DNA of 64,000 nucleotides from an uncultured Gemmatimonadales bacterium (GCA_963821525.1 CAWGED010000018.1:259-64258), one strand, 5' to 3'. Shown: positions 696-59,564, numbered from the stretch's first letter. Made by a program: numbers and translations. Notes: generated by a model not told the origin, from the letters alone.

Positions 696-802
696 AGCCG
701 TCAGCCGTCAGAAAACCAATAGCGTAAGCCTGTTCGTCCAGCTTACGGCTTGAGGCTTACGGCGGTTATCTAAAGACGGCTAATGGCTGATGGCTGAATG
801 GC
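696..802. repeat. heptamer-array palindrome (AGCCGTC x2 ... GACGGCT AATGGCT GATGGCT GAATGGC) with inner hairpin CGTAAGC-N11-GCTTACG
   Basis: Read directly; the arms are reverse-complementary 7-nt word arrays. Lies just downstream of the DUF486 stop. Confidence 0.6.
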
Positions 803-822
803 CGATGATGGACTTGAACCCC
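799..822 (-). repeat. tRNA-Val 3'-end-like fragment
   Basis: TGGCCGATGATGGACTTGAACCCC matches 22 of 24 nt of 11887-11910 (3' acceptor/T-arm of the intact tRNA-Val), same orientation. Confidence 0.5.
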
Positions 823-890
823 ATCTGGGCTCCGTTCATGCCGACCCCTGGGGGAGGACCCGGCGAAGCAATCGAGAAGGGGGTGGACCG

Positions 891-1342
891 ATGGATTCCC
901 GCCTGTTGATGACATTGCAGGTCGTGGTCATGGGCGCACAGAAGATCGGCGCCACACCTCTTGGTACTCGTGTTTTCGTACCGATAGGAAGCGGCGACTT
1001 CGAGGGCCCACGGCTGCGTGGAAAAGTGCTGCCTGGCGGTGGTGATTGGACCCTGCTCCGGGGAGAACGGCGTCCTCGAGCTGGACTTACGGCTGACGCT
1101 CGAGACGGATGACGGCGCCCTGATTCACATGCGGTCCTTCGGCCTTCGCCACGGACCACCCCGAAGTGATCGCAGCGCTCGGCCGGGCAAGAGCGTCGAC
1201 TCCTCGACCTACTACTTCCGGACCACTCCTCGTTTCGAGCCCGGAGACCCGAGGTACGGGTTCCTCGAACCGCCTACTCGCCGTATCGAGCGGCGATCGG
1301 CGCGCCACAGGACCCGTTTACACAATTGACGAGATCCTGTGA
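891..1342 (+). pseudogene. DUF3237-family protein, frame broken at least 3-4 times
   Basis: ATG 891 follows GAAGGGGG. GATPLGTRVFVPIGSGDFEGPRLRGKVLPGGGDW is in the ORF 798 frame. GVLELDLRLTLETDDGALIHMRSFGLRHGPP and YYFRTTPRFEPGDPRYGFL are in the ORF 1018 frame. EVIAALGR and the C-terminus NRLLAVSSGDRRATGPVYTIDEIL (stop 1340-1342) are in the third frame. Confidence 0.6.
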
Positions 1343-1510
1343 GGGCCACGAGGACGATGCGCACTCGTCCCGCTCGAGAGTTCCGCTTCATTACTTGACG
1401 AAGGAAAGCCGATTCGGGAACGACGGATGACGCTCGGCAGGCGCGCCATCCGCCATGCGACGTTTGAACTTCCTTGACCTACCGAGAGCGACTTGAACCC
1501 CACGCGCAGC

Positions 1511-2785: not shown

Positions 2786-4021
2786 CTAGCGAAGCGACTT
2801 GAAGCCGCGCGCAGCTCCGACACGAAGAGTGCCGGTTGTTCCCATGCCGCGAAGTGTCCGCCGCGGTCGACCTCGTTGAAGTAGGCGAGGCCGGGGTAGA
2901 CCGCTCCACCCAGCTGCGCGGGGCAGCCCAGATCTCGCCGGGGAACGTCGTAAGCCGACGGGAACCGAGACCGCCGGAGGAGCCTGGCCGCTCGCAAGCG
3001 CTGCGGCCAGCGCTCGTCCGTCCTCCCAGTACGACCGGGCCGCCGAAGCTGCGGTGCCGGTCAGCCAGTACAGCGTGATGTTGTCGACGATGGTGTCCCG
3101 GGTGAGATTGCCCACGGGCTCGCCGTCGACGAACGCGCGGGAGATCTTGTAGTAGCTGTCCGTGTCGTGGTCGAGCAACCAGGCCGCCAGCGCGACGGGT
3201 GAATCCAGCAGGCCGTAGCCGATCGTCTGTGGCCGCGTTGCCATCTCGAGGAAGTAGCCGAAGCCGTCCTCCTGAACGTCGCGAGCGCCTTGGCCGCTGC
3301 GCGTTCCTGTTCGGATTCCTTGGGCAGTTGATCGCCGATTGCGAGCACCGCCGTGAGCAGGTTCATGTGGATGCCGACCAATCCTTCGACCGCCTGGCGG
3401 CCCATCAGGTCCGTGACGAGGGCACCCACGTCGCCGCCCTGGGCGACATAGCGGGTGTAGCCGAGGCGGTGCATCAGCTCCGCCCACGCGCGTGCGGTGC
3501 GGCCGGAGTCCCAGCCGAGCTCGGTCGGCTCACCCGAGAACCCGTAGCCCGGCAACGACGGCAGCACCAGGTGGAATGCGTCCCGGCGCGTGCCGCCGTG
3601 CGCGGTCGGGTCGGTCAGCGGACCGACGGTCTCGAGCAGCTCGATGACCGAGCCGGGCCAGCCATGGGTCATGATCAGCGGCAACGCGTTCTCATGCCGC
3701 GACCTGACGTGGATGAAGTGGATCTCCACGCCGTCGATCTCGGTCATGAACTGCGGCAACGCGTTCAGCTTGCGCCTCGGCACTTGCGCCAGTCGTACTC
3801 GGTCGCCCAGTAGCGGGCGAGCTCTGCAGCGTCGCGAGCTGCACGCCCTGCGACCGATCCTCGACGAGCTCCTGGTGGAGGCAAGCGCGTGGCCTCGATG
3901 CGCCGGCGCAGTTCGACAAGGTCCGCCTCCGGAACGTCCACGTGAAACGGACGAATACCGGGACTGGTGCCGGCCTGCTGTCGTGCCGCATCAGTCTGTG
4001 TGTTTCAGTCTTAGCAGTCAT
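2786..4021 (-). pseudogene. second epoxide hydrolase paralogue, at least five frame breaks
   Basis: ATG 4021 follows [113 protein letters not shown] and [13 protein letters not shown] are spread over three frames. Confidence 0.7.
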
Positions 4022-4377: not shown

Positions 4378-4781
4378 CACGGCCGCAGGCCGGCGCGGAT
4401 CACACCCTGACTGACCTCCATGCGGGGAATTCCCTCTTTACTTTTGGTTGGAAATGGCGGCCAGAAGAATCGAACCCCCGCGCGGGGGTCTCGAATCGAC
4501 GGCGGAGACTTCTGTTACACGCATGGGCGATGAGGGACTTGACGCGAGGACGGAGGGCCAAGTGATCTCCAAGAGCCCGAAGCTGCTCCGAGATGCGGTC
4601 CTTGGCGGGGCCACTCTTGCCATGGCAGGCTGCGGCTGGATCGACATTGCAGCCGGGTCCAAAGTGAGGACGGTTTCCAAGTGAAAGCACCCATCCAACA
4701 CACAGTTCGCGTCAGGTAAATCCCGCGGCAAAGACCGTCACTGGACGCAACATTCGCGAGCACGGCCGCAGGCCGGCGCGG
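4378..4781 (+). repeat. exact 21-nt direct repeat pair CACGGCCGCAGGCCGGCGCGG (4378-4398 and 4761-4781)
   Basis: Both copies read directly. They bracket 362 nt of non-coding sequence containing two tRNA 3'-end-like fragments. Confidence 0.75.
4524..4542 (-). repeat. tRNA-Val 3'-end fragment (19 of 19 nt)
   Basis: TGGGCGATGAGGGACTTGA is identical to 11887-11905. The flank GACGCGAGGACGGAG resembles the flank of the copy at 10276-10292. Confidence 0.6.
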
Positions 4782-4789
4782 GGCTCCCC

Positions 4790-4864
4790 GTCAGCCGTCA
4801 GCCATAAGCCATAGGCTAAGGTTTACATTCGCCGAGCAGACAGCTGACGGCTGAGGGCTTACGC
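4790..4864. repeat. heptamer-array palindrome (GTCAGCC GTCAGCC ATAAGCC ATAGGCT ... CTGACGG CTGAGGG CTTACGC)
   Basis: Read directly. Same word family as 696-802 and 10594-10628. Confidence 0.55.
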
Positions 4865-10239: not shown

Positions 10240-10275
10240 CCTGGGTGATTTCGAGGTGGTTGACGTCATGCGATC

Positions 10276-10292
10276 GGCGATGAGGGACTTGA
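10276..10292 (-). repeat. tRNA-Val 3'-end fragment (17 of 17 nt)
   Basis: GGCGATGAGGGACTTGA is identical to 11889-11905. The extended similarity GGCGATGAGGGACTTGAYGCGARG.CGGAG is shared with 4526-4558. Confidence 0.6.
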
Positions 10293-10421: not shown

Positions 10422-10453
10422 CCACGTCTCTACCGCTAACCGCTAATCGCTAA

Positions 10454-10525
10454 TGAGCGATGAGGGACTTGAACCCCCGGCCTCGCATGTGAGGCGCGTG
10501 CTCTAACCAGCTGGGCTAATCGCCC
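10454..10525 (-). pseudogene. degenerate tRNA-Val(CAC)-like copy (72 nt)
   Basis: Aligns over its full length with 11887-11960. It has a 2-nt deletion in the 3' anticodon stem, a D-stem C-A mismatch and a G-T in the acceptor stem. Confidence 0.65.
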
Positions 10526-10593
10526 AGTCCAATCTTCGGCATTGTTTGCGGGAACAGGATTGGTGGATCTCCTGCTGCTTTTGCGATGGCCTC

Positions 10594-11242: not shown

Positions 11243-11282
11243 GGAAATCAATCGACCCTCCGATCCACAACCGGAGGGTCGA
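11243..11282 (-). terminator. hairpin downstream of the truncated tRNA copy (paralogue of 10381-10421)
   Basis: Stem TCGACCCTCCG/CGGAGGGTCGA. On the minus strand it is followed by TTGATTTCC. Confidence 0.4.
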
Positions 11283-11322
11283 CTAGACCGCTACTCGCTG
11301 ATAGCTAACCGCTAACCACCAA

Positions 11323-11395
11323 TGGGCGATGAGGGACTTGAACCCCCGACCTCGCGCATGTGAAGCGCGCGCTCTATCGCCGCTATAGCCAGCTG
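11323..11395 (-). pseudogene. truncated tRNA-Val(CAC)-like copy lacking the 5' acceptor strand
   Basis: The 3' 53 nt are near-identical to the intact gene (anticodon loop TTCACAT). The D-region carries a 12-nt insertion, and no GGGCGAT 5' strand is present. Confidence 0.65.
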
Positions 11396-11591
11396 GCGCG
11401 CGGTTGATTTCCTGGTGCTCCCCCACAACACCAAGGCAACCCAAACAGCGCTCGTCTCACTGGACGGCCCCTTAGCGGATCGCTCAGGCTACGACCGCGA
11501 CGCATCCCCCTGGTGGTCGGCGTGTGGCCTGCTGTGACCGGGCAGCCGTGCAGACCAGGGGGTCGGGCCCGTCCCGACCAACCCAAGACTC

Positions 11592-11750
11592 TCAGCAGGC
11601 GCTTACCTGATAGGTGCAGTACCCGCCGCCAGTGCCACGCCCGCCGACCGGGTCACGCTTCGGCGTGAGGTCTCGCAGAGTTTTCTTAGTGAGGGTCAGA
11701 CGCTTAGCCTTTTTCTGTCGGGTGCTGAGCGATTTGCCGCGCTTGGTCAT
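11592..11750 (-). CDS. 52-aa basic peptide with GG-leader-like architecture (possible RiPP/bacteriocin precursor)
   Basis: ATG 11748-11750 lies 4 nt after GGAGG, with TACAAT 11 nt upstream of the ATG. Reads MTKRGKSLSTRQKKAKRLTLTKKTLRDLTPKRDPVGGRGTGGGYCTYQVSAC. Below the ORF-track cut-off. Confidence 0.45.
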   Translation of the reverse strand: MTKRGKSLSTRQKKAKRLTLTKKTLRDLTPKRDPVGGRGTGGGYCTYQVSAC

Positions 11751-11845
11751 ACGGCCTCCAGATTGTAAGGATTTAACGGTCGTAGTCAGAGATCGCGAAC
11801 GGGCGGGGAAACCCGACAGCCTTCATTGACAGGATCGGAAAGGAG

Positions 11846-11880
11846 AAAGCCCCGCAAAACTCTGCGGGGCTTTCTTTTTG
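11846..11880 (+). terminator. canonical intrinsic terminator shape, T-tract on the plus strand
   Basis: Stem AAAGCCCCGCA/TGCGGGGCTTT, loop AAACTC, then CTTTTT. Sits 7 nt from the 3' end of the minus-strand tRNA-Val, so it may act bidirectionally. Confidence 0.6.
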
Positions 11881-11886
11881 CAAACA

Positions 11887-11960
11887 TGGGCGATGAGGGA
11901 CTTGAACCCCCGACCTCGCGCATGTGAGGCGCGCGCTCTAACCAGCTGAGCTAATCGCCC
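11887..11960 (-). tRNA. tRNA-Val (anticodon CAC)
   Basis: 74-nt cloverleaf: acceptor GGGCGAT/ATCGCCC, D arm GCTC-AGCTGGTTA-GAGC, anticodon arm CGCGC-CTCACAT-GCGCG, T arm GGGGG-TTCAAGT-CCCTC. CCA is not encoded. Confidence 0.9.
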
Positions 11961-11979
11961 GGTCCAAGGGGCCGAAACT

Positions 11980-14446: not shown

Positions 14447-14469
14447 GGGCGGAAGCTAAGGCCCCGGGG

Positions 14470-14760: not shown

Positions 14761-14776
14761 CTTTATCTTCCCGCCC

Positions 14777-15787: not shown

Positions 15788-15832
15788 CTGCGGGAGCCGG
15801 GTTGGATCACCGTCCGGCGGGAGCCTATCCTG

Positions 15833-44081: not shown

Positions 44082-44092
44082 ATTTTCCAGTC

Positions 44093-46754: not shown

Positions 46755-47077
46755 GCACCGCCAAACACGCGGTCCGGGTAACGATCGGGGGCGAGGACTA
46801 CACGGTCCGCTCCGAGTTGCCCCCGGAGTACACCCGGGAGGTGGCGGCCTATGTGGACGCCGCACTGCGCCGGATCCGTGATATGATGCCGATGGTGGAG
46901 ACCCACAAGGCGGCCATACTGGCTGCCCTCGCCATCACCGACGAACTGTTTCAGGCACGCCGCGGCGACAGGGAGCATGCCGCGCGGATGCACGCGATGG
47001 CCGAGGACCTGGCCCGGCTGCTCCCGCCGTCCAAGCGGGGCCGCCGGACCACAGGGCCGCACTCCCTCAACGGTTGA
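46751..47077 (+). CDS. zapA: cell division protein ZapA
   Basis: VRVTIGGEDYTVRSE..AAILAALAITDEL. Confidence 0.8.
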   Translation: MSTAKHAVRVTIGGEDYTVRSELPPEYTREVAAYVDAALRRIRDMMPMVETHKAAILAALAITDELFQARRGDREHAARMHAMAEDLARLLPPSKRGRRTTGPHSLNG

Positions 47078-47150
47078 GTCTGCGGCGGACCGCGGTCCGC
47101 CGGCCTTCACCAACGCAGGCCCCTGAGGGGCGCTGCTGGAGATAGATCGC

Positions 47151-48728
47151 ATGCCGTCGTTTTTGATGCCGCTACTCGAGGGCGTGGCCGCCGGGGCGGT
47201 GGTCGCCTTCGTCTTCTTCTTCCTCTATAGCCGAACCCAGCGCAAGAGCGCGACTCGCACGCTCACGGCTGCCCGGTCGGAGGCCGAGCAGCTCGTGGCC
47301 GACGCCAGCCGCAAGGGCGCCGAGGCCCGTGCCGCCATCGTGCTCGAGGGCAAGATGGAAACGTTGCGGCTGCGGGAAGATCTGGAGAAAGAGTTCCAGA
47401 AGCGGCGCGAGGAGTGGGAACGCTTCGAGCGCCGGGCGGAGGATCGCGAGGCCGCGGTCGAACGGAAACTGGAGGAGCTGCAACGTCAGGAGCGCGGCCT
47501 TGCGGGACGCGAGGCGGGAATCACCCAGCGGGAGGATGGGCTCCGGCTGAGCGAAGCCGAGATCGCTCGTCTGGTCCAGGAGCAGCGAGGCAAGCTGGAG
47601 AGGATCGCGGGACTCAGCGCGGAAGAAGCCCGACGCGAGGTGCTGCAGAAAGCAGAGGACGAGTCGCGCGGCCAGGCGGCGGCGCTGGCCCGGGACATCA
47701 AGGAGCAGGCCAAGCGAAACGCCGACCGGGAAGCTCGGCGCATCCTCGCCATGGTGATCCAGCGCATCTCCGCCGAGTACACCGCCGAAAGCACGGTTTC
47801 CGCTGTAGCACTCCCCAGCGACGAAATGAAAGGTCGGATCATCGGCCGCGAGGGACGGAACATCCGCGCCTTCGAGCAGGCGACCGGGGTGGATGTCATC
47901 ATCGACGACACGCCCGACACCGTGATCGTGAGCTGCTTCGATCCGGTGCGCCGGGAGATCGCCCGGCGTTCGCTGGAAGCGCTCATCACCGATGGTCGCA
48001 TCCATCCCGGCCGGATCGAGGAGCTGGTCACCAAGGCGCAGACCGAAATTGCCCGGGAGATTCAGGAGGTGGGGGAGAAGGCGGCCTTCGAGGCCGGAGT
48101 GCACGGTCTTCATCCCGAGCTGGTCAAGCTGGTCGGCCGCATGAAGTACCGCACCTCGTACGGACAGAACATCCTCGAACACTCGAAGGAAGTGGCCTGG
48201 CTGGCGGGAATGATGGCCGCAGAGCTCAAGCTCGACGTGAAGCTGGCCAAGCGCGGAGCGCTGCTCCATGACGTGGGCAAGGTGCTGACCCACGAGAGCG
48301 AAGGCACCCACGTAGAGCTGGGCGTCGAGGTGGCACGCAAGTACGGCGAGAATGCCGCGGTGATCAACTGCATTCAGGCCCACCACGACGACGTGCCGCA
48401 CGAGAGCACCGAATCGGTCCTGGTCCAGGCCGCGGATGCCATCAGCGGCTCGCGTCCTGGCGCCAGACGCGAGGCGTTCGAGAGCTACGTCAAGCGGCTC
48501 ACCAAGCTGGAGGAGATCGCGACCGGGTTCGAAGGGGTGGAGAAGACCAGCGTCATTCAGGCCGGCCGGGAGATTCGCGTCATCGTGGTGCCCGAGAAGA
48601 TTGACGACGCAGCGGCGATGGTGCTGTCGGAGACGATCGCCAAGCGGATCGAGAACGAATTGCAGTACCCCGGCCAGATCAAGGTGGTGGTGATCAGGGA
48701 GACGCGCGCCGTGGGCATCGCGCGATGA
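47151..48728 (+). CDS. rny: ribonuclease Y
   Basis: N-terminal TM, coiled coil, KH ([15 protein letters not shown]), HD (LLHDVGK). Confidence 0.95.
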
Positions 48729-49633
48729 GCGCGCGCATCATCGACGGGGTGGCGATCGGAAAAGCGATCCGTGCCGAAGTCGCCGCCGACGTTGCCCGGC
48801 TCAAGGCGAAAGGTGTGACGCCGGGTCTGGCGGTGGTCCTGGTCGGAGAGAATCCCGCCAGCAAGGCCTATGTGGGAAGCAAGGAGAAGGCCTGCGTCGA
48901 AGCCGGAATGCACTCGGTCAAACTCGAGCTTCCGGTCGAAACCAGCGAGACCGAATTGCTTGCCGCGATCGACCGGTTGAACGCCGATCCCGCGGTGCAT
49001 GGCATCCTGGTCCAGCTGCCGCTGCCCAAGCAGATCAACTCCAGCCGGGTGCTCAATCGGGTCAATCCCGCCAAGGACGTGGACGGGTTTCATCCGGTGA
49101 ACGTTGGCAAGCTCGTGATCAGCGACCCGACCGCGTTGCGGCCCTGCACGCCATGGGGCGTGATCCAGATGCTGCTCCGCAGCAATATCGAGATCAAGGG
49201 CGCCCATGCCGTGGTGCTGGGCCGTTCGACCATCGTCGGCCGCCCGATGGCGAACCTGTTGATTCAGGACGGCCCTGGTGGGAATGCGACCGTCACCATC
49301 TGTCACTCTCGCACGCGGGATCTGCCCGCTGTCACCCGCAGCGCCGACATCTTGATCGCGGCGATCGGCAAAGCCGAGTTCGTGAAGGCCGACATGGTAC
49401 GTCCAGGCGCCGTAGTGATCGACGTCGGGATCAACCGGGTGGACGACCCGAGCAGGCCCCGCGGCTACCGGCTGACCGGCGATGTCGAATATGCCCCGGT
49501 CGCCGAGGTGGCCTCGGCCATCACGCCGGTGCCCGGCGGCGTTGGCCCGATGACCATCGCGATGCTGCTGGCGAACACAATCCAAGCCGTTGAATCAGAG
49601 CAATCGAAGATTGAAGATTCTCAGATTGATTAA
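48725..49633 (+). CDS. folD: bifunctional methylenetetrahydrofolate dehydrogenase/cyclohydrolase
   Basis: [29 protein letters not shown]. The last ~10 aa are encoded by the heptamer array. Confidence 0.95.
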
Positions 49634-49681
49634 TCTGCGGCATTGAGTCAATCTTCAATCTGAAATCTTCAATCTGAAATC
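49601..49681. repeat. heptamer-array palindrome (GAAGATT GAAGATT CTCAGATT | CAATCTT CAATCTG AAATCTT CAATCTG)
   Basis: Read directly; the centre contains GCGGCATTGAG. Confidence 0.75.
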
Positions 49682-49685
49682 ACCT

Positions 49686-50825
49686 GTGACCTCCCCCCTC
49701 ACCACCGACACTCCCTGGTCCGTCACGCAGGTCGCCCGCATGGCCCGGCGCTACATCGAGGCCGGCCTCGGCATGATCTGGATCCGGGGTGAGATCGCGG
49801 AAATCAAGATCTACCAGAGCGGTCACTGGTACTTCACCCTCAAGGATGCCGAGTGCCAGATCCGCGGGGTGATGTGGAAGAGCGACGCACAGCGATTCGG
49901 CTTGCCTCCCGCGGTGGGCGCCCAGGTCTTCGTCTTCGCCAAGCCGACCATCTGGGAGGAGCGAGGCGAATTCCGGCTCAGTGCCACAGAGATGCTGGTG
50001 ACCGACCGGCTGGGTCTCGAGCACCTCGAGCTGCAGAAGATCAAGGCCGCGCTCGAGAAGGATGGACTGTTCGATCCGTCGCGGAAGCGCTCGCTGCCCG
50101 AGTGGCCCTCCTGCATCGCCGTGGTGACCAGTCTGGATGGTGCTGCCTTGAGGGACATCATCACCGTGGCCCGGAAGCGCTGGCGCTCACTGGAAATCCG
50201 GGTGATCGGCGCCAAGGTCCAGGGTGCCGAAGCCGAGCTCGAAATGGTGCGAGCCCTCAAACTGGTCAATCGGCTGGAGGGAGTCTCGCTGTGTATCGTG
50301 GCCCGGGGCGGCGGTGGCAAAGAAGACCTCGCCGTCTTCAACAGCGAAAAAGTCTGCCGCGCGCTGGCACAAGTGAAGGTCCCCACCATCTCCGCTGTCG
50401 GGCATGAGACCGACGTGTCCTTCACTGATTTCGTGGCCGACTGCAGAGCTCCGACTCCTTCGGCGGCGATAGAGCTGGCGGTGCCGGACAGCGCCGAGCT
50501 GATCGATCGAGTCAACCATCTGGCTGTACGGCTTGCCAACGCGGTGGGGCAGGGAACCCGGCTCGCGGTCGAGCGACTGGAGCGTTCGGGAGATCGTCTG
50601 CACGCCGCCGTGACCAATCTCCTGGAGCGTCGTCAGCGCCAGGTGGACCGGCTCGGCGCGCAACTGGACGCATTGAGCCCGCTGAAGGTCCTTGAACGGG
50701 GGTTCGCCCTCCCCCGAGCCGAGGATGGCCGGGTGTTGCGCCGCGCCGCCGAATTCACTCCCGCCTTGTCGTTCCGGCTCCGCGTCATCGACGGCGAGGT
50801 CCCGGCCCGAGTGGAGGAGAATTGA
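49686..50825 (+). CDS. xseA: exodeoxyribonuclease VII large subunit
   Basis: OB fold WIRGEIAE..GHWYFTLKD, then the catalytic region ARGGGG.EDL..FN. Confidence 0.9.
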   Translation: MTSPLTTDTPWSVTQVARMARRYIEAGLGMIWIRGEIAEIKIYQSGHWYFTLKDAECQIRGVMWKSDAQRFGLPPAVGAQVFVFAKPTIWEERGEFRLSATEMLVTDRLGLEHLELQKIKAALEKDGLFDPSRKRSLPEWPSCIAVVTSLDGAALRDIITVARKRWRSLEIRVIGAKVQGAEAELEMVRALKLVNRLEGVSLCIVARGGGGKEDLAVFNSEKVCRALAQVKVPTISAVGHETDVSFTDFVADCRAPTPSAAIELAVPDSAELIDRVNHLAVRLANAVGQGTRLAVERLERSGDRLHAAVTNLLERRQRQVDRLGAQLDALSPLKVLERGFALPRAEDGRVLRRAAEFTPALSFRLRVIDGEVPARVEEN

Positions 50826-51073
50826 TGGCCGAGGAAAATCGCGCCGAGGAGACACCGACGCTGGCCGAAGACCTGCGCCGGCTCGAGGAGATCGTCCGGC
50901 GTCTCGAGTCCAATGACGGTGATCTGGATCAGGCGCTGGCGCTCTTCGAGGAGGGTGTCGCACGCCTGCGCAGCGCCAGGGCGAGGTTGTCGGGCGCAGA
51001 GGTGCGGGTGCGCAAAGTGGTCGCCGACGCGCGGGGTGCCTTGCGGATGGACGATCTCGACGGCGAGCAGTAA
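50822..51073 (+). CDS. xseB: exodeoxyribonuclease VII small subunit
   Basis: 83 aa; LEEIVRRLESNDGDLDQALALFEEGV. Confidence 0.9.
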   Translation: MMAEENRAEETPTLAEDLRRLEEIVRRLESNDGDLDQALALFEEGVARLRSARARLSGAEVRVRKVVADARGALRMDDLDGEQ

Positions 51074-51076
51074 TCG

Positions 51077-51982
51077 GTGCGCGAGGAGGACTCTGCCCGG
51101 GTGATCCTGGCCGAGGCGCGGGAGCGAACCGACGAGCTCCTTCAGGCGTGGGCCGAACGGATCAGGGGCATGGTGCCGGGCCGTACCGGAGAGGCGCTCG
51201 CCTACGCGATGAACACGCCGGGCAAGCGCGTCCGGGCCGCGTTGGTGCTCGCTGCCTACCGGTCGGTCGGTGGATTCTCACCCGCGATCGCCGCGGTGGC
51301 TGCCGCGGTCGAAACGGTGCACACCTACTCGCTGGTCCACGACGATCTGCCCTGCATGGACGACGACGACCTCCGTCGCGGGCGTCCCACCACCCACCGG
51401 GCATTCGACGTTCCTACCGCGACACGAGTCGGCCTGCTCATGGTGCCGGTTGCCGCTTTGGTGCTCGCCCAGGCGGCGCAGGATCTCCGCCTGCCTCCCG
51501 CGACCTCCGGCCGGGTGGCGCGTGAGCTGTTCGAGGCGAGCGGGATCCGCGGGATGGTCGGCGGCCAGTGGCTCGACCTCGAGGCCGAAGGCGCCGCCCT
51601 CGATCTGAAAGGGCTGACCGCCGTCCACGAAGGCAAGACGGGCGCGCTGATTCGTGCCGCGTGCGTCATGGGAGCGCTGGCGGCCGAGGCACCGGCGGCC
51701 GCCGTCAACGCACTCAGCTCCTATGGGCAGGACATCGGACTCGCCTTCCAGGTCGCCGATGACGTGCTCGACGCCACGGCCACCAGCGCCCAGCTCGGCA
51801 AGACCGCCGGCCGCGACGCGGCGCTTGCCAAGTCGACCTATGTGGGTCTGCTGGGCGTAGAAGGAGCCCGGAAAGAGGCGCGAAGCCTGGCGAACCGGGC
51901 AGTCAAACACTTGCAGCGGGCCGGTTTCGCCTCGGGCTCGTTGGAGGCGTTGGCGGAGTATATTGTAACGAGACAGTCTTGA
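51077..51982 (+). CDS. ispA: polyprenyl (farnesyl/geranylgeranyl) diphosphate synthase
   Basis: FARM HDDLPCMDDDDLRRG and SARM FQVADDVLD. Confidence 0.85.
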   Translation: MREEDSARVILAEARERTDELLQAWAERIRGMVPGRTGEALAYAMNTPGKRVRAALVLAAYRSVGGFSPAIAAVAAAVETVHTYSLVHDDLPCMDDDDLRRGRPTTHRAFDVPTATRVGLLMVPVAALVLAQAAQDLRLPPATSGRVARELFEASGIRGMVGGQWLDLEAEGAALDLKGLTAVHEGKTGALIRAACVMGALAAEAPAAAVNALSSYGQDIGLAFQVADDVLDATATSAQLGKTAGRDAALAKSTYVGLLGVEGARKEARSLANRAVKHLQRAGFASGSLEALAEYIVTRQS

Positions 51983-51994
51983 GGCGAGGAGGCA

Positions 51995-52076
51995 GGAAGT
52001 AGGGGGTGGGGAATGGGGAGTAGGGCGTCAGCTTGAGCTTGGGAGCAAGCCCTACTCCCTACACCCTATTCGCTAC
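51995..52076. repeat. heptamer-array palindrome (GGAAGTA GGGGGTG GGGAATG GGGAGTA GGGCGTC | GCCCTAC TCCCTAC ACCCTAT TCGCTAC)
   Basis: Read directly. Confidence 0.7.
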
Positions 52077-52101
52077 AACCTGCCGTGCCCAAACCCAAAA
52101 C

Positions 52102-54000
52102 ATGACCCTTCTTCCATCCATCCACAGCCCCGCCGATCTCAAGGCCATCCCCCGGGAGCAACTCCCCGAGCTGGCCCAGGAGATTCGCACTCGGCTGATC
52201 GAATGTGTCTCCCTGACGGGTGGTCACATCGGCGCCAGCCTGGGAACCGTGGAGCTGGCCATCGCGCTCTTGTACGAGTTCGATTCCCCGCACGACAAGA
52301 TCCTGTGGGATGTGGGACACCAGGCATACGCGTGGAAGCTGCTGACCGGCCGCAACGATCGCTTCCCCACACTGCGGCAGACCGATGGAGTCTCCGGCTT
52401 TCTCAAGCGGGACGAGAGCGAGCACGACCAGTTCGGCGCGGGACACGCGGCCACCGCCATGTCGGCGGCACTGGGGATGGCCACGGCCCGCGACCTCAAG
52501 GGCGAGAACTACAAGGTCGTTGCCGTGGTAGGAGACGGTGCGCTCACGTCGGGTCTCAGCTACGAGGGGATGAATAACGCCGGTCACTCCGACCGGGACA
52601 TCATCCTGATCGTGAACGACAACGGGATGTCGATTTCTCCCAATGTCGGCGCCATCAGCAAGACACTGGGCGCCATCGTCGCGATGCCGGTCACCAACCG
52701 GTTCCGGGAGCGGCTCAAGCATTTCACCATCCGGCTGAGCCACGTCTTCGGTGAAGGTGTGGTGGACTTCGCCAAGAACGTGGAGGAGAGCGCCAAGAAT
52801 CTCTTCTCCGAAGGAATGCTGTTCGAGGAGCTGGGCTTTCGCTACTTCGGTCCGATTGACGGGCACGATATCAAGAAGCTGTCGGATACCTTGCGCTTCG
52901 TGAAAGGAATGTCGGGCCCCCGCGTGGTCCACGTGCTCACGGAGAAGGGGAAGGGCTTCGCCTTCGCCGAATCGAATCGGGAGAAGTGGCACGGTCTCGC
53001 CGCCTACGATCCGGTGACCGGCGAAGCGCGGAAGAAATCTTCCGGCCCTCCCACCTGGACCCAGGTATTCGGCGATGCCATCTCGGCACTCGCGGCCGAT
53101 CATCCGGATCTGGTGGCGATCACCGCCGCGATGCCCAGCGGCACGGGAACCAACATCTTCCAGAAGAAGTGGCCCAACCGGTTCTTCGACGTCGGGATCG
53201 CCGAAGGCCACGCGGTCACTTTTGCCGGTGGGCTCGCGACTCAAGGTGTCCGGCCCATCGTCGCGATCTATAGCACGTTCCTGCAACGGGCGTACGACAA
53301 CATCATCCACGACATCGCGGTCCAGCACCTTCCGGTGATCTTCTGCATGGACCGCGCTGGCCTGGTGGGCGAAGATGGCCAGACCCACATGGGGCTCTAC
53401 GACATCGCTTACATGCTGGCGGTGCCGGGGATGACGGTGACGGCGCCCAAGGATGGCGATGAGCTGGCGGGCCTGCTCAAGACTGCTCTGACTCACGATG
53501 GCGGTCCCTTCTGCACCCGGTACCCCCGGGACAAGGCGCCGGCCGATCCGCGTCCCGTCGCCGAGGTGGAGCCGGTGCCTTATGGGACGTGGGAGATTCT
53601 GCGCCGCGGCAAGGACCTCGCGATTCTCGCCGTGGGTACGATGGTCCAGCCGGCCCTCGCCGCGGCCGAGACCCTGGCCTCCGAAGGGCTCGATTGCGCA
53701 GTGGTGAACTGCCGCTTCCTCAAGCCGCTCGACGCCGGCACCCTGGGCGAGCTGACCCAGGAGTACCGCACCTTCGTGACCATCGAGGAAGGCACCGTGG
53801 TGAACGGGTTCGGCGCTTACCTCTCCGAGGTCATGCAGACCACCTATCCCGAGGCGCGAGTCATCGCACTCGGCGTCCCCGACAGACTGATCGAACAGGC
53901 CCCGCGTGCCGAGCAGCTCGAAATGTTCGGGCTCACGGCGCAGGGCATCGCCCGCCGGATCCGCACGCTGTCCAGCGAGGAGAGCATCGCCGCCCGATGA
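52102..54000 (+). CDS. dxs: 1-deoxy-D-xylulose-5-phosphate synthase
   Basis: GGHIGASLG..WDVGHQAY..GDGALTSG..GIAEGHAV. ATG 52102; the upstream part of ORF 52033 is repeat. Confidence 0.95.
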   Translation: MTLLPSIHSPADLKAIPREQLPELAQEIRTRLIECVSLTGGHIGASLGTVELAIALLYEFDSPHDKILWDVGHQAYAWKLLTGRNDRFPTLRQTDGVSGFLKRDESEHDQFGAGHAATAMSAALGMATARDLKGENYKVVAVVGDGALTSGLSYEGMNNAGHSDRDIILIVNDNGMSISPNVGAISKTLGAIVAMPVTNRFRERLKHFTIRLSHVFGEGVVDFAKNVEESAKNLFSEGMLFEELGFRYFGPIDGHDIKKLSDTLRFVKGMSGPRVVHVLTEKGKGFAFAESNREKWHGLAAYDPVTGEARKKSSGPPTWTQVFGDAISALAADHPDLVAITAAMPSGTGTNIFQKKWPNRFFDVGIAEGHAVTFAGGLATQGVRPIVAIYSTFLQRAYDNIIHDIAVQHLPVIFCMDRAGLVGEDGQTHMGLYDIAYMLAVPGMTVTAPKDGDELAGLLKTALTHDGGPFCTRYPRDKAPADPRPVAEVEPVPYGTWEILRRGKDLAILAVGTMVQPALAAAETLASEGLDCAVVNCRFLKPLDAGTLGELTQEYRTFVTIEEGTVVNGFGAYLSEVMQTTYPEARVIALGVPDRLIEQAPRAEQLEMFGLTAQGIARRIRTLSSEESIAAR

Positions 54001-54866
54001 AGGTCGGAGTGGTCGGAAACCCGCGATACGCCGACCTCAAGGCGGTGCTGCAACAGTTGTCTCGCGAAGCGCCGTCGCGTGGCATCTCGCTGGTTACCGA
54101 GCCCAGTCTCACGCCTCTCTGGGACCTGAACCTCCCCCTGCTGGACGAAGTACCCGTGGATGCGCTCCTCACCTTTGGTGGGGACGGTACCTTGCTCCGC
54201 GGCATGCGGCTGCTCAATGGCCGCGAGGCTCCGATCCTGGGAGTCAATTTCGGCCGGGTCGGATTTCTCACCACCGCCGACCGCGACGGACTGATCCCCG
54301 CGCTCGATGCGCTGGTGTCGGGGCGCTATGTCCTCGAGCGCCGTCTGGTCCTCGTCGCCTCGATCATCAGCGACGGCGGCGGAGTCCGGAGCGAGCAGAT
54401 GGCGCTCAACGACGTCGCGATCCACAAGAGCGGCGTCGCCCGGGTCATCCGGGTGCGGGTCACGGTAGACGGTGAAAACGTCGGTCCTTACAGTGCGGAC
54501 GGGATCGTGGTCGCGACTCCAACCGGCTCGACCGCCTACTCGCTTAGTGCCGGTGGTCCCATCGTAGTACCGGGCGTCGAAGCCATGATTGTCACACCGG
54601 TCTGCGCTCATACCCTCGCGGTTCGCCCTCTCGTGGTGCCCGCCGACTCGGTCATCTGTATCGAGCCTCTCGCCCCGGGGACGGATGACATTCTTCTCTC
54701 CTATGACGGTCAGGTCGGTACTATGGTGGCCCTGGGAGATCGGGTGTATGTGCGACGCGCACCCAGCGCGGCATTGTTGATCCGAATCGGGCAGGAAGGC
54801 TACTTCTCCCGGATGCGGCAGAAGCTGGGCTGGGGAGATCTCTCCGAACGGGAAGTCATCCGGTGA
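53997..54866 (+). CDS. nadK: NAD kinase
   Basis: TFGGDGTLL..NFGRVGFL..ATPTGSTAYSLSAGGP. ATGA overlap with dxs. Confidence 0.9.
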   Translation: MKVGVVGNPRYADLKAVLQQLSREAPSRGISLVTEPSLTPLWDLNLPLLDEVPVDALLTFGGDGTLLRGMRLLNGREAPILGVNFGRVGFLTTADRDGLIPALDALVSGRYVLERRLVLVASIISDGGGVRSEQMALNDVAIHKSGVARVIRVRVTVDGENVGPYSADGIVVATPTGSTAYSLSAGGPIVVPGVEAMIVTPVCAHTLAVRPLVVPADSVICIEPLAPGTDDILLSYDGQVGTMVALGDRVYVRRAPSAALLIRIGQEGYFSRMRQKLGWGDLSEREVIR

Positions 54867-56517
54867 TTTCCGAGCTCCGCGTTCGGGACCTCGCCACCAT
54901 TTCCGAAGTCGTCCTCCAACTCGGCTCCGGCCTCAACGTCCTCACCGGTGAGACCGGTGCGGGAAAGTCCATGCTGGTGGACGCGATGGCGCTCCTGTTG
55001 GGCGAGCGGGCCGACAGCAGCATGGTGCGGCCTGGGGCCGGGCGGGCCATCGTCGAGGGAGCATTCGAGCTGACGGATCCGGCTCTCCGGCGCCGCCTCG
55101 ATGCTGCCGGGCTCGATTCCGAGGATGACCGCTGATCATTCGCCGCGAGGTTTCCAGCGACGGGCGATCCAGGGCCTGGATCAACGGCAGTCCGACGACG
55201 GTCGCCATGCTGGGTCGGATCGGAGCCCTGCTCGTAGATCTGCACGGCCAGCACGAGACCCAATCGCTGCTTCACGCCGAGGCACAGCGCGACATCCTGG
55301 ATGCCTTCGCGGATGCGATGGCTGAACGGGCCGCGCTGGCCGAAACGCACGCCGCGGCGACCACGCTGGCCAACGAAGAAGCCGCTCTCATCGCCCGGCG
55401 CGACGAGGCGCTGCGCCGGGCCGACTACCTGCGCCACGTGGTGGACGAGATCGATCGGGCGAAGCTCAAGAGTGGGGAAGACGAAAGCCTCGACGCCGAA
55501 GCGCGCCGGTTGAATCACGCCGGAACGCTGGGTGAGCAGGCTCGGAAATTGGGCGGGCTGCTGGATGACGAAGAGGCCGGTGTGCTCCACGCCCTCGGTC
55601 AGGCTGACCGGCTCCTGGGCCAGCTCGATAAGGTGGATCCCGGGGTGACGCCGTGGCGGGAGCTGCTGGACACCGCCTACAACAATCTTTCGGAACTCGC
55701 GCGCCTGGCCGCTGAGTACGCCGAGTCGGTGCAGGAGGATCCGGCGCGCCTCGCGGAGATCGAACGCCGGCGCGACGTGCTGTTCCGGCTGCGGCAGAAA
55801 CACGGGGCGACGATCGAGGCGATCCTCGACACCCGCCGCCAGGCCGCGGCCGAGCTGGAGCTGCTCGATACGGCCGAGACCGACCTCCGCGCCATCGCGG
55901 CTCGCCGTACCGCGCTGGATGCGACGCTAAAGAGTGCCGCCGGGGCGCTCAGCACCAAGCGAAACGACGCGTCGGGCCGGCTCTCCCGCGCGGTCAACCG
56001 AATGCTGCCCGCGCTCGGATTGCCAGGCGGGAAGTTCTCTCTCGAACTGTCGCCGCTTTCAACGATTCAGGCGCAGGGGCAGGAATCCGTCGTCTTCATG
56101 GTACGGCTCAACGAGGGCATGGAGTGGCGTCCGCTCGCGCGCTCCGCATCGGGCGGAGAATTGTCCCGCCTCATGCTCGCACTGAAGGTCGTCCTTGCTC
56201 GGCACGACGCCGTTCCGACTCTCATCTTCGACGAGCTGGATCAGGGGGTCGGCGGCGAGGTGGGTGCGCAGGTAGGGAGTGCCTTGGCCCAGGTCGCCGA
56301 GCGGCGGCAGGTTCTCGTGATCACCCATCTCCCTCAGATTGCGGCCCGCGCCACCCGGCACCTCGTCGTGTCCAAGCAGGCCCGGCAGGGAATCGCGACC
56401 AGCGACGTGGAAGTGATCCACGGCGAAGACCGCATTACTGAGCTGGCGAGGATGTTGGGGGATGCGGATGCCGATACGGCAAGGCGGCATGCTCAAGCAA
56501 TGCTTGAGAGTACCTAG
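54863..56517 (+). CDS. recN: DNA repair protein RecN, one frame break at about 55131
   Basis: Walker A GETGAGKS (ORF 54863). LIIRREVSSDGRSRAWINGSPTTV..LHGQHETQSLL and the signature SGGELSR with Walker B LIFDELD are in the ORF 55207 frame. Confidence 0.9.
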
Positions 56518-56608
56518 TACCTAGTACCGAGTACCGAGAGTCGGCTCGAGGACTCGCGGGGCAGGAGAGCTGCAGTTACTAGGTACTCGGTACTAGGTAC
56601 CCGGTACT
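56509..56608. repeat. heptamer-array palindrome (AGTACCT AGTACCT AGTACCG AGTACCG | TTACTAG GTACTCG GTACTAG GTACCCG GTACT)
   Basis: Read directly. Lies between convergent recN and the outer-membrane gene. Confidence 0.75.
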
Positions 56609-58195
56609 ATTGCCAAAACCTCCGATAAAACCGAATCGCCCCCCGGACCGTTTCCGATCCCGGAACCCGACCCCCAGTCGCACTCAGTACTCGCTCATAG
56701 GTCAGCGTCGCATCGATCGGCAGGCCGCACTTGCCGTTCTGGCACTCGTGCGCCGCACGACCCACATACGTGAGACCGGCGGTGAACGAGGTGGCGCTGC
56801 GGGCGGATTCCTGGGCGAGGAGCCCGGCGCTCACTCCGGAGATCACGTCGCTCGACTGCGAGGTAGCTCGCCGAGCCTTCCGCTTCATGCCAGTAGGAAA
56901 CTCCGGCCGTGATCGCGAGTTGTGGTGCCAGCCGGAAGAACGGTTGAGCACTCAGCGAGTAGAGATCGCCAGGATCGAGTGTCACTCTCGAGGAGCGATT
57001 GGCAAATGGAATCGGTTGGTCGGGTGGCGTCACCCGCAGGGCGCGGTCGCTGGAGAAACGACGCTGATAGTTTCCGATCAGCCGGGCGCCGATGCGGCCG
57101 TAGCCCAGGTCGGCGGTGAGGCCGCCATGCACCTCGTACCGTTTGTTTCCCGTGCCGACGTCCAGAAAATTCAGTGGATCCTCGGCCTTCCCGGTGGGCA
57201 GCACGACAGACCCCTCGGCGACGACACGGACTCCGCCGAGTCCCTTCTTCCCGTCCCAATCGTCTATCAGGGTGTAGACGGCTCCGATCTCCACGTCGCC
57301 GATCTGTGAGAGCTGCGCCTCTTGCAAGGGAAATCCCTGGACCGGACCGAAGGGATTGGAAACGAAAGCGTTGATGTCGTTGGCAGAAAGCCGGCCTGTG
57401 GGAAGCGGCACTATCGACGTAAAGCCCTGGCACGTTGAGGCCGGTGGGATTTGACAACGTGTCCTGGAGATCGCTGATGCTTTCAAGCACCGCGACACCA
57501 GCGGTGCTGGTATCGACCGGCAGGAATGGGGAAGCGGTAACAGGATCGTTGCTGACGGCGCCCAGACGAGACCGCAGCGCAGCTGCCTGTTGCTCTACGG
57601 CGCTCGCATGATTCCGGAGTGGCGAGCCCGGAGGCCCATAGGCTCCGTTAGAGATATTCGTGCGCAGGGTGTTCAGGGCCTGATCGAAGTCGGTGAAAAA
57701 CTGCTGTGCGGCTGATTGGCCCGGTCCTGTCCCGAGGGTCGGGTGGGCGGGATTGAATCCGGCGTTAGCGGTCGTGGAGTCCAGTTGGAATCGGGCCTGG
57801 ACCCTGGTGGTGACGATTGGAATGTTGGTGAAGAGGGTCAGTCCGCGCGTCAGGCCAACCGCGAACCCGAGGCCTGCGGTAGTCACCGTGACTCCACCGT
57901 TGGCCACCTGCTTGCCAAGATTGATCTGGTATGCGCTATTCCCGATGATGGCGCCGATGGCCGTGTCGGCCGTGATCAGGTCGGGCCAGAAGCTGCTGCC
58001 CAGGGCCGGGCGGGAGAAATCGGCGAGGTAGTCCTGCTCGTTGCCGTTCAGGAAGCGGGAATTGTAGCTCGTCCAATCGCCGGAGAGCGTGAATCGAACC
58101 ACGCCCCTCGGTACGCCGATCGGTTCCAATTGTGCCTGAGAGGGCTGGGCGCCGAGCGCGATTCCCCCCACCACCAGCCACACCAGATGCTTCAA
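56607..58195 (-). CDS. putative outer-membrane protein, two frame breaks (about 57425 and 56850-56880)
   Basis: Signal peptide LKHLVWLVVGGIALGAQPSQAQ (TTG 58195). Beta-rich body continues through ORFs 56885-58252, 56695-57498 and 56607-56951. Confidence 0.6.
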
Positions 58196-58221
58196 GCAGC
58201 CTCCAGGGAGATGGATAGTCG

Positions 58222-59364
58222 GTGAGCCCTCACGCGCCCAAGGCCCTCGCAACTTCGCTGTTTCAAAGGGTCTTTGCCAGTCAACCCACCGTCTTCGCTT
58301 CGGCGCCCGGGCGGGTGAATTTGATAGGGGAACACACCGACTACAATGGCGGGCCCGCCCTGCCTTTTGCGATCGAGCGGCGCACCGTCATAGCCGCCGC
58401 TCCAGCGCCGGCCTGGCAGGCGGTCTCGACCGTGGACGGCACGCCGCATCTCCTCGATCCGTCGGGACCTCCCGCCGGCGGGTGGACCGACTACCTGCGT
58501 GGCGTGATCAGGGTCCTGCAGCGGGAAAAACTGGCTCCGACCGGTGGCAGGATCGCGGTCGCCAGCTCCATCCCCATCGGCGCGGGACTCTCTTCTTCGG
58601 CCGCGCTCGCGGTAAGCCTCGCCAAGGCTCTCACCATGCTCTCCGGGCGAAGGGCGCCTCCGCCCCTCCTCGCCGAGCTTGCCTACCGAGCCGAACACGA
58701 TGAGGTCGGCGTGCGCTGTGGCCGGATGGACCAGACGATCGCCGCACTGGCGACCCGGGAGAGCGCGCTGCTGTTCGAATCAGCGACGGGCGAAGTGAGA
58801 CGGGTTCCACTGCTGGGACGGATCATCGTGATGGAGACCGGCGTCGAGCGGCGGCTGACCGATGGACAATACAACCAGCGCCGCAAGGAGTGCGAAGAAG
58901 CAATCAGTCTGCTTGCCGACCAGGAGCTTCACGTGCCATCGCTCGCGGCCATATCTCCGGAAGGCATGCCCCAGGTCGAGCGCCTGTTGCCTGTCCCCTG
59001 GTTGCTCCGGGCTCGCCACGTCGTGGGGGAGACCCAGCGCACCCGCACCGCCGCCTCGGCCCTCATGATGGGAGACCGAAATACTCTGGGCCGCATTCTC
59101 TTCGAGGGGCACGCATCACTGCGAGATAACTACCAGTGCAGCTGCCCCGAGGCGGATCTCCTGGTCGAGTCCGCGCGAACTCACGGCGCCATCGGCGCGC
59201 GACTCACCGGTGCCGGATGGGGAGGTGCCGTGATTCTGCTGACGCCTCCCGGCCACGAGGCACGAATCGTAGCCGAGGCCAGCGATGAGTTTCGGAAGGC
59301 CTTTGGAAGGTTTCCAGAGATCTGGCAGACGAGAGCGATGGGCGGGGTGAGGGCGGGCGGGTAG
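58222..59364 (+). CDS. galK: galactokinase
   Basis: APGRVNLIGEHTDYNGG and the GHMP motif PIGAGLSSSAAL. Confidence 0.9.
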   Translation: MSPHAPKALATSLFQRVFASQPTVFASAPGRVNLIGEHTDYNGGPALPFAIERRTVIAAAPAPAWQAVSTVDGTPHLLDPSGPPAGGWTDYLRGVIRVLQREKLAPTGGRIAVASSIPIGAGLSSSAALAVSLAKALTMLSGRRAPPPLLAELAYRAEHDEVGVRCGRMDQTIAALATRESALLFESATGEVRRVPLLGRIIVMETGVERRLTDGQYNQRRKECEEAISLLADQELHVPSLAAISPEGMPQVERLLPVPWLLRARHVVGETQRTRTAASALMMGDRNTLGRILFEGHASLRDNYQCSCPEADLLVESARTHGAIGARLTGAGWGGAVILLTPPGHEARIVAEASDEFRKAFGRFPEIWQTRAMGGVRAGG

Positions 59365-59368
59365 GCCA

Positions 59369-59564
59369 CAAAAGCGGGAAAAGGGAACAGGGAAAGCGGC
59401 GATACTGTGAAATTCACCTCATCCCGAGGAGCGAAGCGACGAGGGATCTAGCCTACCGGCCTACGCGCCTGACCCAGGACGGTAGATCCCTCGCTTCGCT
59501 CGGGATGAGGTGACTCGTGCTCGAGTCTTGCCCGCTCCGTTCCCCGTTCCCTGTTCCCGCTTTT
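59369..59564. repeat. composite palindrome with the full conserved core (59415-59512)
   Basis: Arms are AAAAGCGGGAAAAGGGAACAGGGAAAGCGG | CCCGCTCCGTTCCCCGTTCCCTGTTCCCGCTTTT. Core is CACCTCATCCCGAGGAGCGAAGCGACGAGGGATCTA ... TAGATCCCTCGCTTCGCTCGGGATGAGGTG. Confidence 0.8.

Follow-up and report, generated by a model that had tools for sequence, protein, structure and literature searches.

Many intergenic gaps in a 64,000 nt chromosomal stretch (65% GC, Gemmatimonadota) of an uncultured Gemmatimonadales bacterium (GCA_963821525.1 CAWGED010000018.1:259-64258), referred to here at its full length as the window, are filled by palindromes whose arms are tandem arrays of a 7 nt word. The window contains one such palindrome that encloses a gene for an S23p protein (a full cassette, 37608-38157) and thirteen hairpins that lack an open reading frame (ORF). 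We read the gap hairpins and the S23p cassettes as a single class of element, having as its full form a G-rich arm, an S23p gene and a C-rich arm, with the ORF-less hairpins being derivatives or relatives of this form; we would put the probability of this at about one in two. In this reading the cassette is also the unit that forms the 'intervening sequences' of 23S rRNA.

An array detector requiring at least 3 copies and at least 85% lag identity, with 20 dinucleotide-preserving shuffles as the control, found 25 period-7 arrays in the window, 24 of which are intergenic; the shuffles averaged 0.2, none giving more than 1. With periods of 5, 6 and 8-12 there were between 0 and 3 arrays, equal to the shuffle background. 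Lag-7 identity reached 0.313 in non-coding sequence against a background of ~0.27, and coding sequence had no peak. The reverse complement of the repeated word, in at least two tandem copies, was present no more than 300 nt away from 16 of the 25 arrays, compared with one of 25 at a control distance of 1000-1300 nt. At each of the 13 loci that were folded, the hairpin was more stable than shuffled sequence (z -2.6 to -11.8), such that the window palindromes have the long stem formed from terminal inverted repeats that is a trait of S23p intervening sequences. The G-rich arm comes first in 11 palindromes and the C-rich arm in 3, and several hairpins abut stop codons, starting at the codon or a few nucleotides past it. 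At 0.39 arrays per kb, the window is five to nine times as dense as sets of loci from other phyla; Obg-centred loci from such phyla, 1.04 Mb in all, held 47 period-7 arrays, against two of period 8 and nine of period 9, and clear palindromes with heptamer arms are also found outside the Gemmatimonadota in loci L020, L040 and L060.

The palindromes and the S23p gene are as follows, with left and right arm words separated by a colon.

696-807: palindrome; outer arms AGCCGTC x2:GGCTRAT x4, inner arms GTAAGCC:GGCTTAC; C-rich arm first (Tandem Repeats Finder, TRF; dG -48.5, z -3.1)
4788-4862: palindrome; CCGTCAG x2 (plus CCATAAG):CTGACGG-type; C-rich arm first (fold z -3.9 / -5.0)
14466-14764: nested composite palindrome in the divergent gap between a Wzi-like gene (minus strand) and the asparaginase II gene (plus strand); left arms of GGAGACG-, GGTGTCA- and GTGAACR/GGGAACR-type, right arms (GTTCCCC)n then (GTCTCCC)n (dG -181.6, z -9.7)
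14583-14681: core element of ~100 nt at the centre of the preceding palindrome; inverted arms CACCTCATCCCGAG..GCGAAGC..GAGGGACCT (from the repeat families within the window; copies in relatives and other phyla)
16469-16614: hairpin in the cmd-obg gap; GTCGATR:ACGTCTC x3 plus a GACGACT/CCGACC tail; partial complementarity (z -2.6)
18881-19148: nested palindrome upstream of hemW; (GGGAGAN)x6 (GTGAACR)x3, half a core element (18968-19024), then (GTTCCCC)x6 (GTCTCCC)x10 (z -4.9 / -6.7)
37608-38157: full S23p cassette between rex and the arginine deiminase gene; arms GGTGTCA/GGGGTCA (37608-37641) and TGACACC/TGACCCC (38125-38157), gene in the loop
37633-38037, minus strand: S23p gene, 134 aa, antisense to both neighbours; PF05635 / TIGR02436, four-helix bundle
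40198-40354: palindrome; (GAGTTCC)x3.5:(CGGAACT)x3, then direct (GTACTAG)x5 (fold z -5.1)
42049-42108: hairpin in the infC-rpmI gap, beginning at the infC stop codon; GACGGTT-type:AACCGTC-type (z -7.6)
42705-42755: hairpin in the rplT-pheS gap; left arm GGTGTCA x2, GGGGCCA and GGGGTCA (z -5.0); kept in relatives
43938-44081: palindrome in the pheS-pheT gap; (GCGGTGA)x4.6, a 78 nt loop, then (TCACCGC)x4 (z -11.8)
49601-49681: palindrome; GAAGATT:AATCTTC/AATCTGA (z -2.7 / -4.4)
51993-52082: palindrome; GGRAGTA/GGGGAAT:CCCTACT-type (z -6.7)
56507-56610: palindrome between convergent genes; AGTACCT/AGTACCG:GGTACTN (z -4.8)
59370-59562: palindrome between convergent genes; (GGGAAMA)n, core element (59415-59512), then (GTTCCCY)n (z -9.5 / -11.0)

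An earlier note on this DNA had described gaps filled by a heptamer array, a spacer and an array of the reverse complement, with a different word at each locus. TRF calls period-7 arrays at every locus that it named, the enrichment that it proposed to look for is present, with a lag-7 peak confined to non-coding sequence, and the pairing and folding figures above place arm complementarity well over background. The words it listed as recurrent (GTCAGCC, GGTGTCA, GGGAGAC/GGGGAAC and GGTACTA) are recovered as repeat families, and the constancy of the architecture whilst the word changes is borne out between loci as well as between relatives. Its estimate that 13 of 15 gaps carry a palindrome was too high: a rough gene map has ~20 gaps of 60 nt or more in the 14-60 kb interval, and ~12 of them do so. 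Three loci need amendment. At 16469-16614 the array is supported by period-7 calls, but complementarity between the arms is only partial in the window, whereas the orthologous gap of the relative L087 still has complementary arms. The inverted arms at 37615 and 38125 are real, but the gap between them is not empty, since the pair encloses the PF05635 gene, which the earlier reader overlooked. At 40199-40350 the GTTCCGR:CGGAACT palindrome stands, but the portion given as GTACTAG x4 (40318-40354) is a direct array, the left partner of which has decayed in the window; L192 retains this partner, as GAGTACC, for its equivalent GGTACTC array.

The S23p gene of the window matches Pfam PF05635 (E 5e-34) and TIGR02436, 'four helix bundle protein' (E 1e-31), and the closest solved structure is PDB 2GSC (E 1.7e-25), which is XCC0516 of Xanthomonas campestris, a pentamer of five chains. 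S23p is under purifying selection, with a ratio of nonsynonymous to synonymous substitution rates (dN/dS) of 0.11-0.16 (0.11 for the window gene against an 83%-identical allele). PADLOC matched it to no defence system. A search for S23p remnants in the window and 87 other loci returned only the window gene itself and a weak hit in L009.

Eighty metagenomic loci with S23p homologues 45-60% identical were surveyed for arrays. Close to the gene (up to 200 nt) the density was 3.99 period-7 arrays per kb, and beyond that distance it fell to 0.08 per kb. Arrays were found upstream at 60 loci, downstream at 54 and on both sides at 43, the two sides being mutually reverse complementary, and in 43 of 44 paired arms the G-rich member came first, a property that is strand-symmetric. 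The placement of the cassettes is also characteristic: the left arm typically begins no more than ~10 nt past the upstream stop codon, and the ATG of the downstream gene directly follows the right arm. Arms have a median of ~4.5 units, and the duplexes that they could form have a mean stability of -58 kcal/mol. S23p proteins are on average more alike within a word family (58.5% identity) than between families (50.3%; permutation p < 0.001), and GGTGTCA persists among proteins that are only ~58% identical; by these comparisons the repeat word tracks the S23p clade.

Two sets of related sequences bear on how the cassette moves. In the rex-arginine deiminase gap, related contigs differ in arm copy number, and in contigs with flanking genes 90-98% identical to the window at the nucleotide level (98% in L179) the S23p alleles are, as proteins, only 51-53% identical to that of the window; this alternative allele (L177:3618-4034 and L179:670-1065, as against 37633-38037 in the window) has GGGAGTA:CCCTACT arms. 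The occurrence of two S23p alleles within one species-level population is a cassette replacement at a fixed site. A type III-B CRISPR operon of Picosynechococcus PCC 7003 (L172) has arms and an S23p gene separating cmr2/cas10 from cmr3, and in strain PCC 7002 (L185), with flanks 92.7% identical to those of PCC 7003, the cmr2-cmr3 boundary is a 12 nt stop-start junction without arrays. The arms and the gene are thus inserted, or exchanged, as one unit placed exactly at stop-start junctions. S23p genes within cas operons have been interpreted as CRISPR-Cas-associated (PMC3936711); the Picosynechococcus case suggests that they may instead be inserted cassettes.

Heptamer arms flank S23p genes in other organisms also. 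They are found on cyanobacterial plasmids of Nostoc, Calothrix, Geminocystis, Picosynechococcus and Stanieria, with GGGAACA:TGTTCCC arms in Nostoc edaphicum and GGGTGTA:TACACCC arms in Calothrix, and the S23p gene of Nostoc PCC 7120 is likewise flanked. The N. edaphicum plasmid additionally bears ORF-less (GGGAACA)n arrays. A true 23S rRNA intervening sequence on replicon AZO_p2 of Azospirillum lipoferum has a stem built of heptamers and an S23p ORF. In Xanthomonas, the XCC0516 gene adjoins an array of GGGAATC, the dominant word of that genome, and around 8 of 11 S23p loci on viral contigs have heptamer arms. One viral contig carries an ORF-less GGTGGCG:CGCCACT palindrome (L202:519-637) ~250 nt upstream of an S23p cassette with GGCTTGG:CTAAGCC arms. 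On plasmid 1 of Gemmatirosa kalamazoonensis, a cultured member of the Gemmatimonadota (L186:22545-23091), an S23p homologue is flanked by arrays of an 8 nt unit (GGGCAGGA).

The ORF-less hairpins of the window resemble the cassettes in architecture, G-first polarity, placement flush with stop and start codons, nesting and some of their words, and it is these common features that link the two. GGTGTCA, the word of the window cassette, recurs at ORF-less sites at 14490-14523 and 42705-42738; the GGGAGTA of 51993-52082 also flanks the alternative S23p allele (L177, L179) and S23p genes on viral contigs (L196-L198); and the GGGAACA-type words of ORF-less arrays in the window are those that flank the N. 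edaphicum gene. Placement can be exact: the pheS stop codon lies inside the left arm of 43938-44081, the right arm of which ends 6 nt before the pheT ATG (44087); the left arm of 40198-40354 lies within the 3' end of an RNase T-like ORF, and its (GTACTAG)x5 array stops 4 nt short of the next ATG; and at 14466-14764 C-rich arrays adjoin both start codons in the sense orientation. Short ORF-less rRNA intervening sequences exist besides ORF-bearing ones, so that the lack of an ORF need not set a hairpin outside the class, and we infer a corresponding relation here, with the cassettes as the coding form and the ORF-less hairpins as their non-coding derivatives or relatives.

Comparison of orthologous gaps, which the earlier note had recommended, reveals variation in both words and copy numbers. 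In strains with identical DprA, the cmd-obg gap measures 124, 138 or 145 nt, differing by whole 7 nt steps, and the gap upstream of hemW 263, 270, 305 or 319 nt; gap lengths varying by multiples of seven bear out the suggestion that the arrays are prone to slippage. Gaps orthologous to 14466-14764 vary by 7 nt units and by a 59 nt central deletion. Between species with DprA ~90% identical, the words at ORF-less gaps differ: the cmd-obg gap, for instance, has GTCGATG:CATCGAC in one and GGGTCTT:AAGACCC in another, the arms still being complementary. Relatives with identical L20 have, in the pheS-pheT gap, GCGGTGA:TCACCGC (the window), GGTCGAT:ATCGACC (L191), a hybrid of these (L192) or a single arm, and next to the RNase T-like gene, on its 3' side, they have either GAGTTCC:GGAACTC (the window) or GACGGTT:AACCGTC (L191). 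The hairpin at 42049-42108 is retained with small changes in relatives. Among 12 more distant Gemmatimonadota lineages the dprA-hemW gap is occupied in five, by a different word in each. The heptamer palindromes are fast-evolving elements, not deeply conserved sites.

The following course of events can be proposed, of which the comparisons above show the first two steps: arrays change length by slippage in 7 nt steps, and the cassette inserts or is exchanged as a unit at stop-start junctions, as at the cmr2-cmr3 and rex-arginine deiminase sites. Filling such junctions in operons like pheS-pheT, the elements would be co-transcribed with their neighbours, and the transcripts would fold into stems estimated at ~20-60 bp. 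These stems might be cut by RNase III, as in rRNA intervening sequences, or otherwise punctuate the transcript; the ORF-less hairpins would probably be processed as double-stranded RNA. Slippage combined with arm-to-arm template switching, or else selection for pairing, could keep the arms both repetitive and complementary. Rho prefers C-rich, G-poor RNA, and our conjecture for the G-first polarity is that it could shield the C-rich arm from Rho, a partner for pairing being already in place when that arm is transcribed.

Several observations weigh against treating the hairpins and cassettes as one class. An S23p gene is present in only one of the 14 window palindromes, no further S23p gene was found beside the ~60 arrays of unrelated loci totalling 1.2 Mb, and most window words have no known S23p partner; S23p being so rare beside arrays, the argument for descent from cassettes is one from common architecture, polarity, placement and some words. 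Unequal arm lengths are frequent, as at 18881-19148; the palindromes occur sporadically from lineage to lineage in the Gemmatimonadota, a distribution that neutral or selfish DNA would show; and the Gemmatirosa arrays show that the period is not absolutely fixed at 7. Finally, the arm duplexes at S23p loci did not differ in stability between sense and antisense (n=43, p=0.63), a result that speaks neither for nor against a function as RNA; arm complementarity may thus be kept at the DNA level, through template switching from one arm to the other, rather than by selection on RNA.

This lack of strand asymmetry is equally what would be expected if the palindromes were a mutational by-product without function, generated by 7 nt polymerase slippage together with fold-back or quasi-palindrome template switching, with S23p cassettes as one carrier or inhabitant. 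Template switching between arms is known for quasi-palindromes, and such an origin would account for the 7 nt copy steps, unequal arms and central deletions, the replacement of words and the hybrid arms at the same gap in near relatives, and the sporadic occupancy of gaps across lineages. Mrazek et al. 2007, in the account given of that work in PMC4679880, proposed polymerase slippage and a 7 nt contact of the polymerase. Slippage alone nevertheless leaves unexplained the 43:1 bias towards the G-rich arm coming first, the 50-fold concentration around one gene family, the persistence of GGTGTCA among divergent S23p proteins, the exact abutment of stop and start codons, and the way in which arms and gene enter an array-free site together; we regard it as doubtful, whilst taking it seriously. 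The same absence of strand asymmetry counts against the palindromes being REP-like (repetitive extragenic palindromic) or terminator-like hairpins, selected to end or stabilise the upstream messenger RNA and unrelated to S23p. The stable stems that begin at, or within a few nucleotides of, stop codons fit this proposal, as does the observation that Xanthomonas transcripts start or stop at GGGAATC repeats more often (PMC4692102), and 42722-42755 has a terminator pattern, with a 15 bp stem and a weak T-tail. However, it is the sole one of nine palindromes in the 20 kb scanned (37001-57000) to have a T-tail, other hairpins lie within infC-rpmI-rplT and between pheS and pheT, and 14466-14764 fills a divergent promoter gap, where it can be a terminator for neither gene. 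The idea of terminators, raised in the earlier note as RNA 3'-end hairpins, thus fails a simple test; intrinsic terminators were rejected for most loci, and hairpins of this kind, unrelated to S23p, seem to us very improbable.

The arrays might instead be protein-binding sites, with one heptamer per footprint of an oligomeric factor (pentameric S23p or a Csp-like single-strand binder) that tunes translation initiation or DNA transactions, the hairpin being secondary. That the word co-varies with the S23p clade, that arms have a median close to the five subunits of the S23p pentamer and that C-rich arrays adjoin start codons are all compatible with this, and arrays of heptamers have been described a short way ahead of start codons in Beggiatoaceae, cyanobacteria and Bacteroidetes (PMC4679880), and in Nostoc (bioRxiv 10.1101/2022.06.06.494920). 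Yet there are many words but a single S23p gene in 64 kb, and near-universal inverted pairing would be needless in simple binding arrays, which makes this explanation rather unlikely. Two further candidates were rejected. G-quadruplexes do not serve as a general explanation, because runs of at least four consecutive G3 units (GGGNNNN-type) are present in the GGGAGAC and GGGGAAC arrays but absent from those of GTCGATR, GAGTTCC, GCGGTGA, GAAGATT, GACGGTT and AGTACCT. Nor do the arrays supply stop codons in all frames, as TGA or TAG occurs in many words but not in GGGAGAC, GTTCCCC or GGTGTCA.

Returning to the reading of hairpins and cassettes as one class, a tentative extension of it is that the S23p pentamer may be a trans-acting, sequence-specific partner that reads about five 7 nt units, and binds, maintains or spreads the hairpins. 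Protein and hairpins would together form a two-component system, much as RAYT and REPINs do, and could be the source of the bacterial excess of heptanucleotide repeats, including the GGGAATC arrays of Xanthomonas and the short tandemly repeated repetitive (STRR) sequences of cyanobacteria, which are tandem heptanucleotide repeats. We consider this possible, with the odds against it.

The ~100 nt core element is a separate, REPIN-like palindromic family, the arms of which hold a GCGAAGC mini-hairpin motif (CATCCCGAGCGAAGCGAGGGA). It is centred in three heptamer palindromes (14583-14681, 59415-59512 and, as a half copy, 18968-19024), and the 59 nt deletion that separates strains removes its middle. 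Copies outside the window, including some in other phyla, are found in L081-L087, L095:1731-1753 and L025:15294-15316. The core element alone behaves as a sequence family, unlike the heptamer arms.

The ATG of a gene for a protein of the metallo-beta-lactamase fold is closely preceded by a direct (GGTACTM)n array of 4-6 units, the end of which lies 4-8 nt upstream, in the window (40318-40354) and in most of the eight relatives compared (L188-L195). In L188 the array has decayed or is absent, but it can persist where the neighbouring palindrome has been replaced, and it is a candidate 5' untranslated region element.

The genes of the window are chiefly housekeeping genes, predominantly on the plus strand, and include those for asparaginase II, obg, dprA, hemW, hrcA, dnaJ, prmA, rex and infC-rpmI-rplT-pheS-pheT. 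Its Obg protein is 62-82% identical to those of Gemmatimonadaceae and of Gemmatimonadales metagenome-assembled genomes, the order ansA-cmd-obg-dprA-hemW-hrcA-dnaJ is kept across Gemmatimonadota, and near relatives with DprA ~91% and ~88% identical are found in soil metagenomes. Between dprA and hemW, the relatives L081-L086 have a stretch of ~5.6 kb (~11276-16897) with a gene for a 1,600 aa Ser/Thr kinase (Big_2 and RCC1 repeats) and an outer-membrane beta-barrel gene; it is not in the window. The heptamer palindrome stays beside hemW. An Rfam scan of the window at gathering thresholds returned only tRNAs, with no RNA family matching the palindromes. Two tRNA-Val (CAC) genes are present (10453-10526 and 11887-11960), along with tRNA-Val 3'-end fragments (GGCGATGAGGGACTTGAACCCCCG) at 790-817, 4515-4542, 10265-10292 and 11314-11382, accompanied by a 21 nt exact repeat (4378-4398 and 4761-4781); these copies, fragments and repeat resemble the traces of several integrations into tRNA-Val. 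ACCGCTA arrays, short and direct, adjoin tRNA 3' ends at 10431-10455 and ~11304-11320. Tandem paralogous epoxide-hydrolase genes (EHN and alpha/beta hydrolase fold) lie on the minus strand at 1511-2632 and 2786-3783, with 73-79% DNA identity; the latter, broken across two reading frames, is a probable pseudogene.

Reports that bacteria have an excess of heptanucleotide repeats go back to at least 2007, with no cause or function yet accepted, and the S23p family is widespread and structurally solved. The link between S23p and the arrays has large effect sizes and is seen in metagenomes, cultured cyanobacteria, a true rRNA intervening sequence and viral contigs. If the ORF-less hairpins are true non-coding members of the class, both the origin of heptanucleotide repeats and the role of S23p become testable, and the feature suggests a concrete origin for the former and a role for the latter. 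The elements also break short-read assemblies, many metagenomic S23p contigs being only 0.5-5 kb long.

The organisation is not, as the earlier note supposed, wholly undescribed, since both the excess of heptanucleotide simple sequence repeats (SSRs) and the inverted array pairs of Xanthomonas have been published. According to the citing papers, Mrazek et al. 2007 found heptanucleotides to be the most over-represented class of long SSR in many bacteria, and the most abundant one in the majority of genomes surveyed (PMC4679880, PMC4692102). In Xanthomonas, Rehm et al. 2015 described GGGAATC arrays that form convergent inverted pairs, 70-75 to a genome, typically of ~4 units and biased to sit at or over stop codons, conserved in type between species but varying in length, and interpreted as G-quadruplex formers; the adjacency of XCC0516 to an array is listed in a table there, without discussion (PMC4692102). 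Families of 4-5 heptanucleotide repeats have been described in Geobacter. In Coxiella, the 23S rRNA intervening sequence has an inverted-repeat stem, strain-variable GACAGAT heptamers and RNase III cleavage (PMC4990558). None of these descriptions explains the arrays. Our literature coverage was partial and earlier descriptions may exist, but within it there was no account of heptamer repeats in Gemmatimonadota and, save for the Coxiella report, no association of them with S23p. The class of repeat is hence a known one, and its inverted organisation here and its tie to the S23p cassette are new as far as could be searched.

Amongst known systems, intrinsic terminators have in common with the window elements that they are GC-rich hairpins after stop codons, but the window hairpins lack a U-tract (which is weak at 42755), have long loops, and occur within operons and in divergent positions. 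REPs and REPINs are dispersed intergenic hairpins, and the RAYT gene, which encodes an IS200/IS605-like nuclease or transposase, is flanked by the repeats, as S23p is here; the combination of many short intergenic hairpins with few repeat-flanked protein genes makes this an analogy for S23p. However, REPs conserve sequence and are not tandem, whereas the heptamer arms keep period and architecture but not sequence, and RAYT is a nuclease or transposase, whilst for S23p no catalytic activity is known.

The convergent inverted pairs of Xanthomonas hug stop codons as do the window palindromes, but have one dominant word, whereas the window has many, mostly without G-tracts. With heptanucleotide SSRs and the STRR sequences, which are likewise intergenic, over-represented, copy-variable and, in cyanobacteria, of many words, the window arrays have in common the excess of tandem 7 nt units, the intergenic siting and the copy-number polymorphism between strains; the published arrays are direct, and have been described with neither inverted pairing nor G-first polarity nor a link to S23p. 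The window contains no rRNA, and its elements all lie between protein-coding genes rather than in the helices of 23S rRNA, 13 of the 14 lacking an ORF. What they have in common with the 23S rRNA intervening sequences of Coxiella, Leptospira and Azospirillum is an inverted-repeat stem, which in the one window cassette, as in those sequences, encloses a PF05635 gene.

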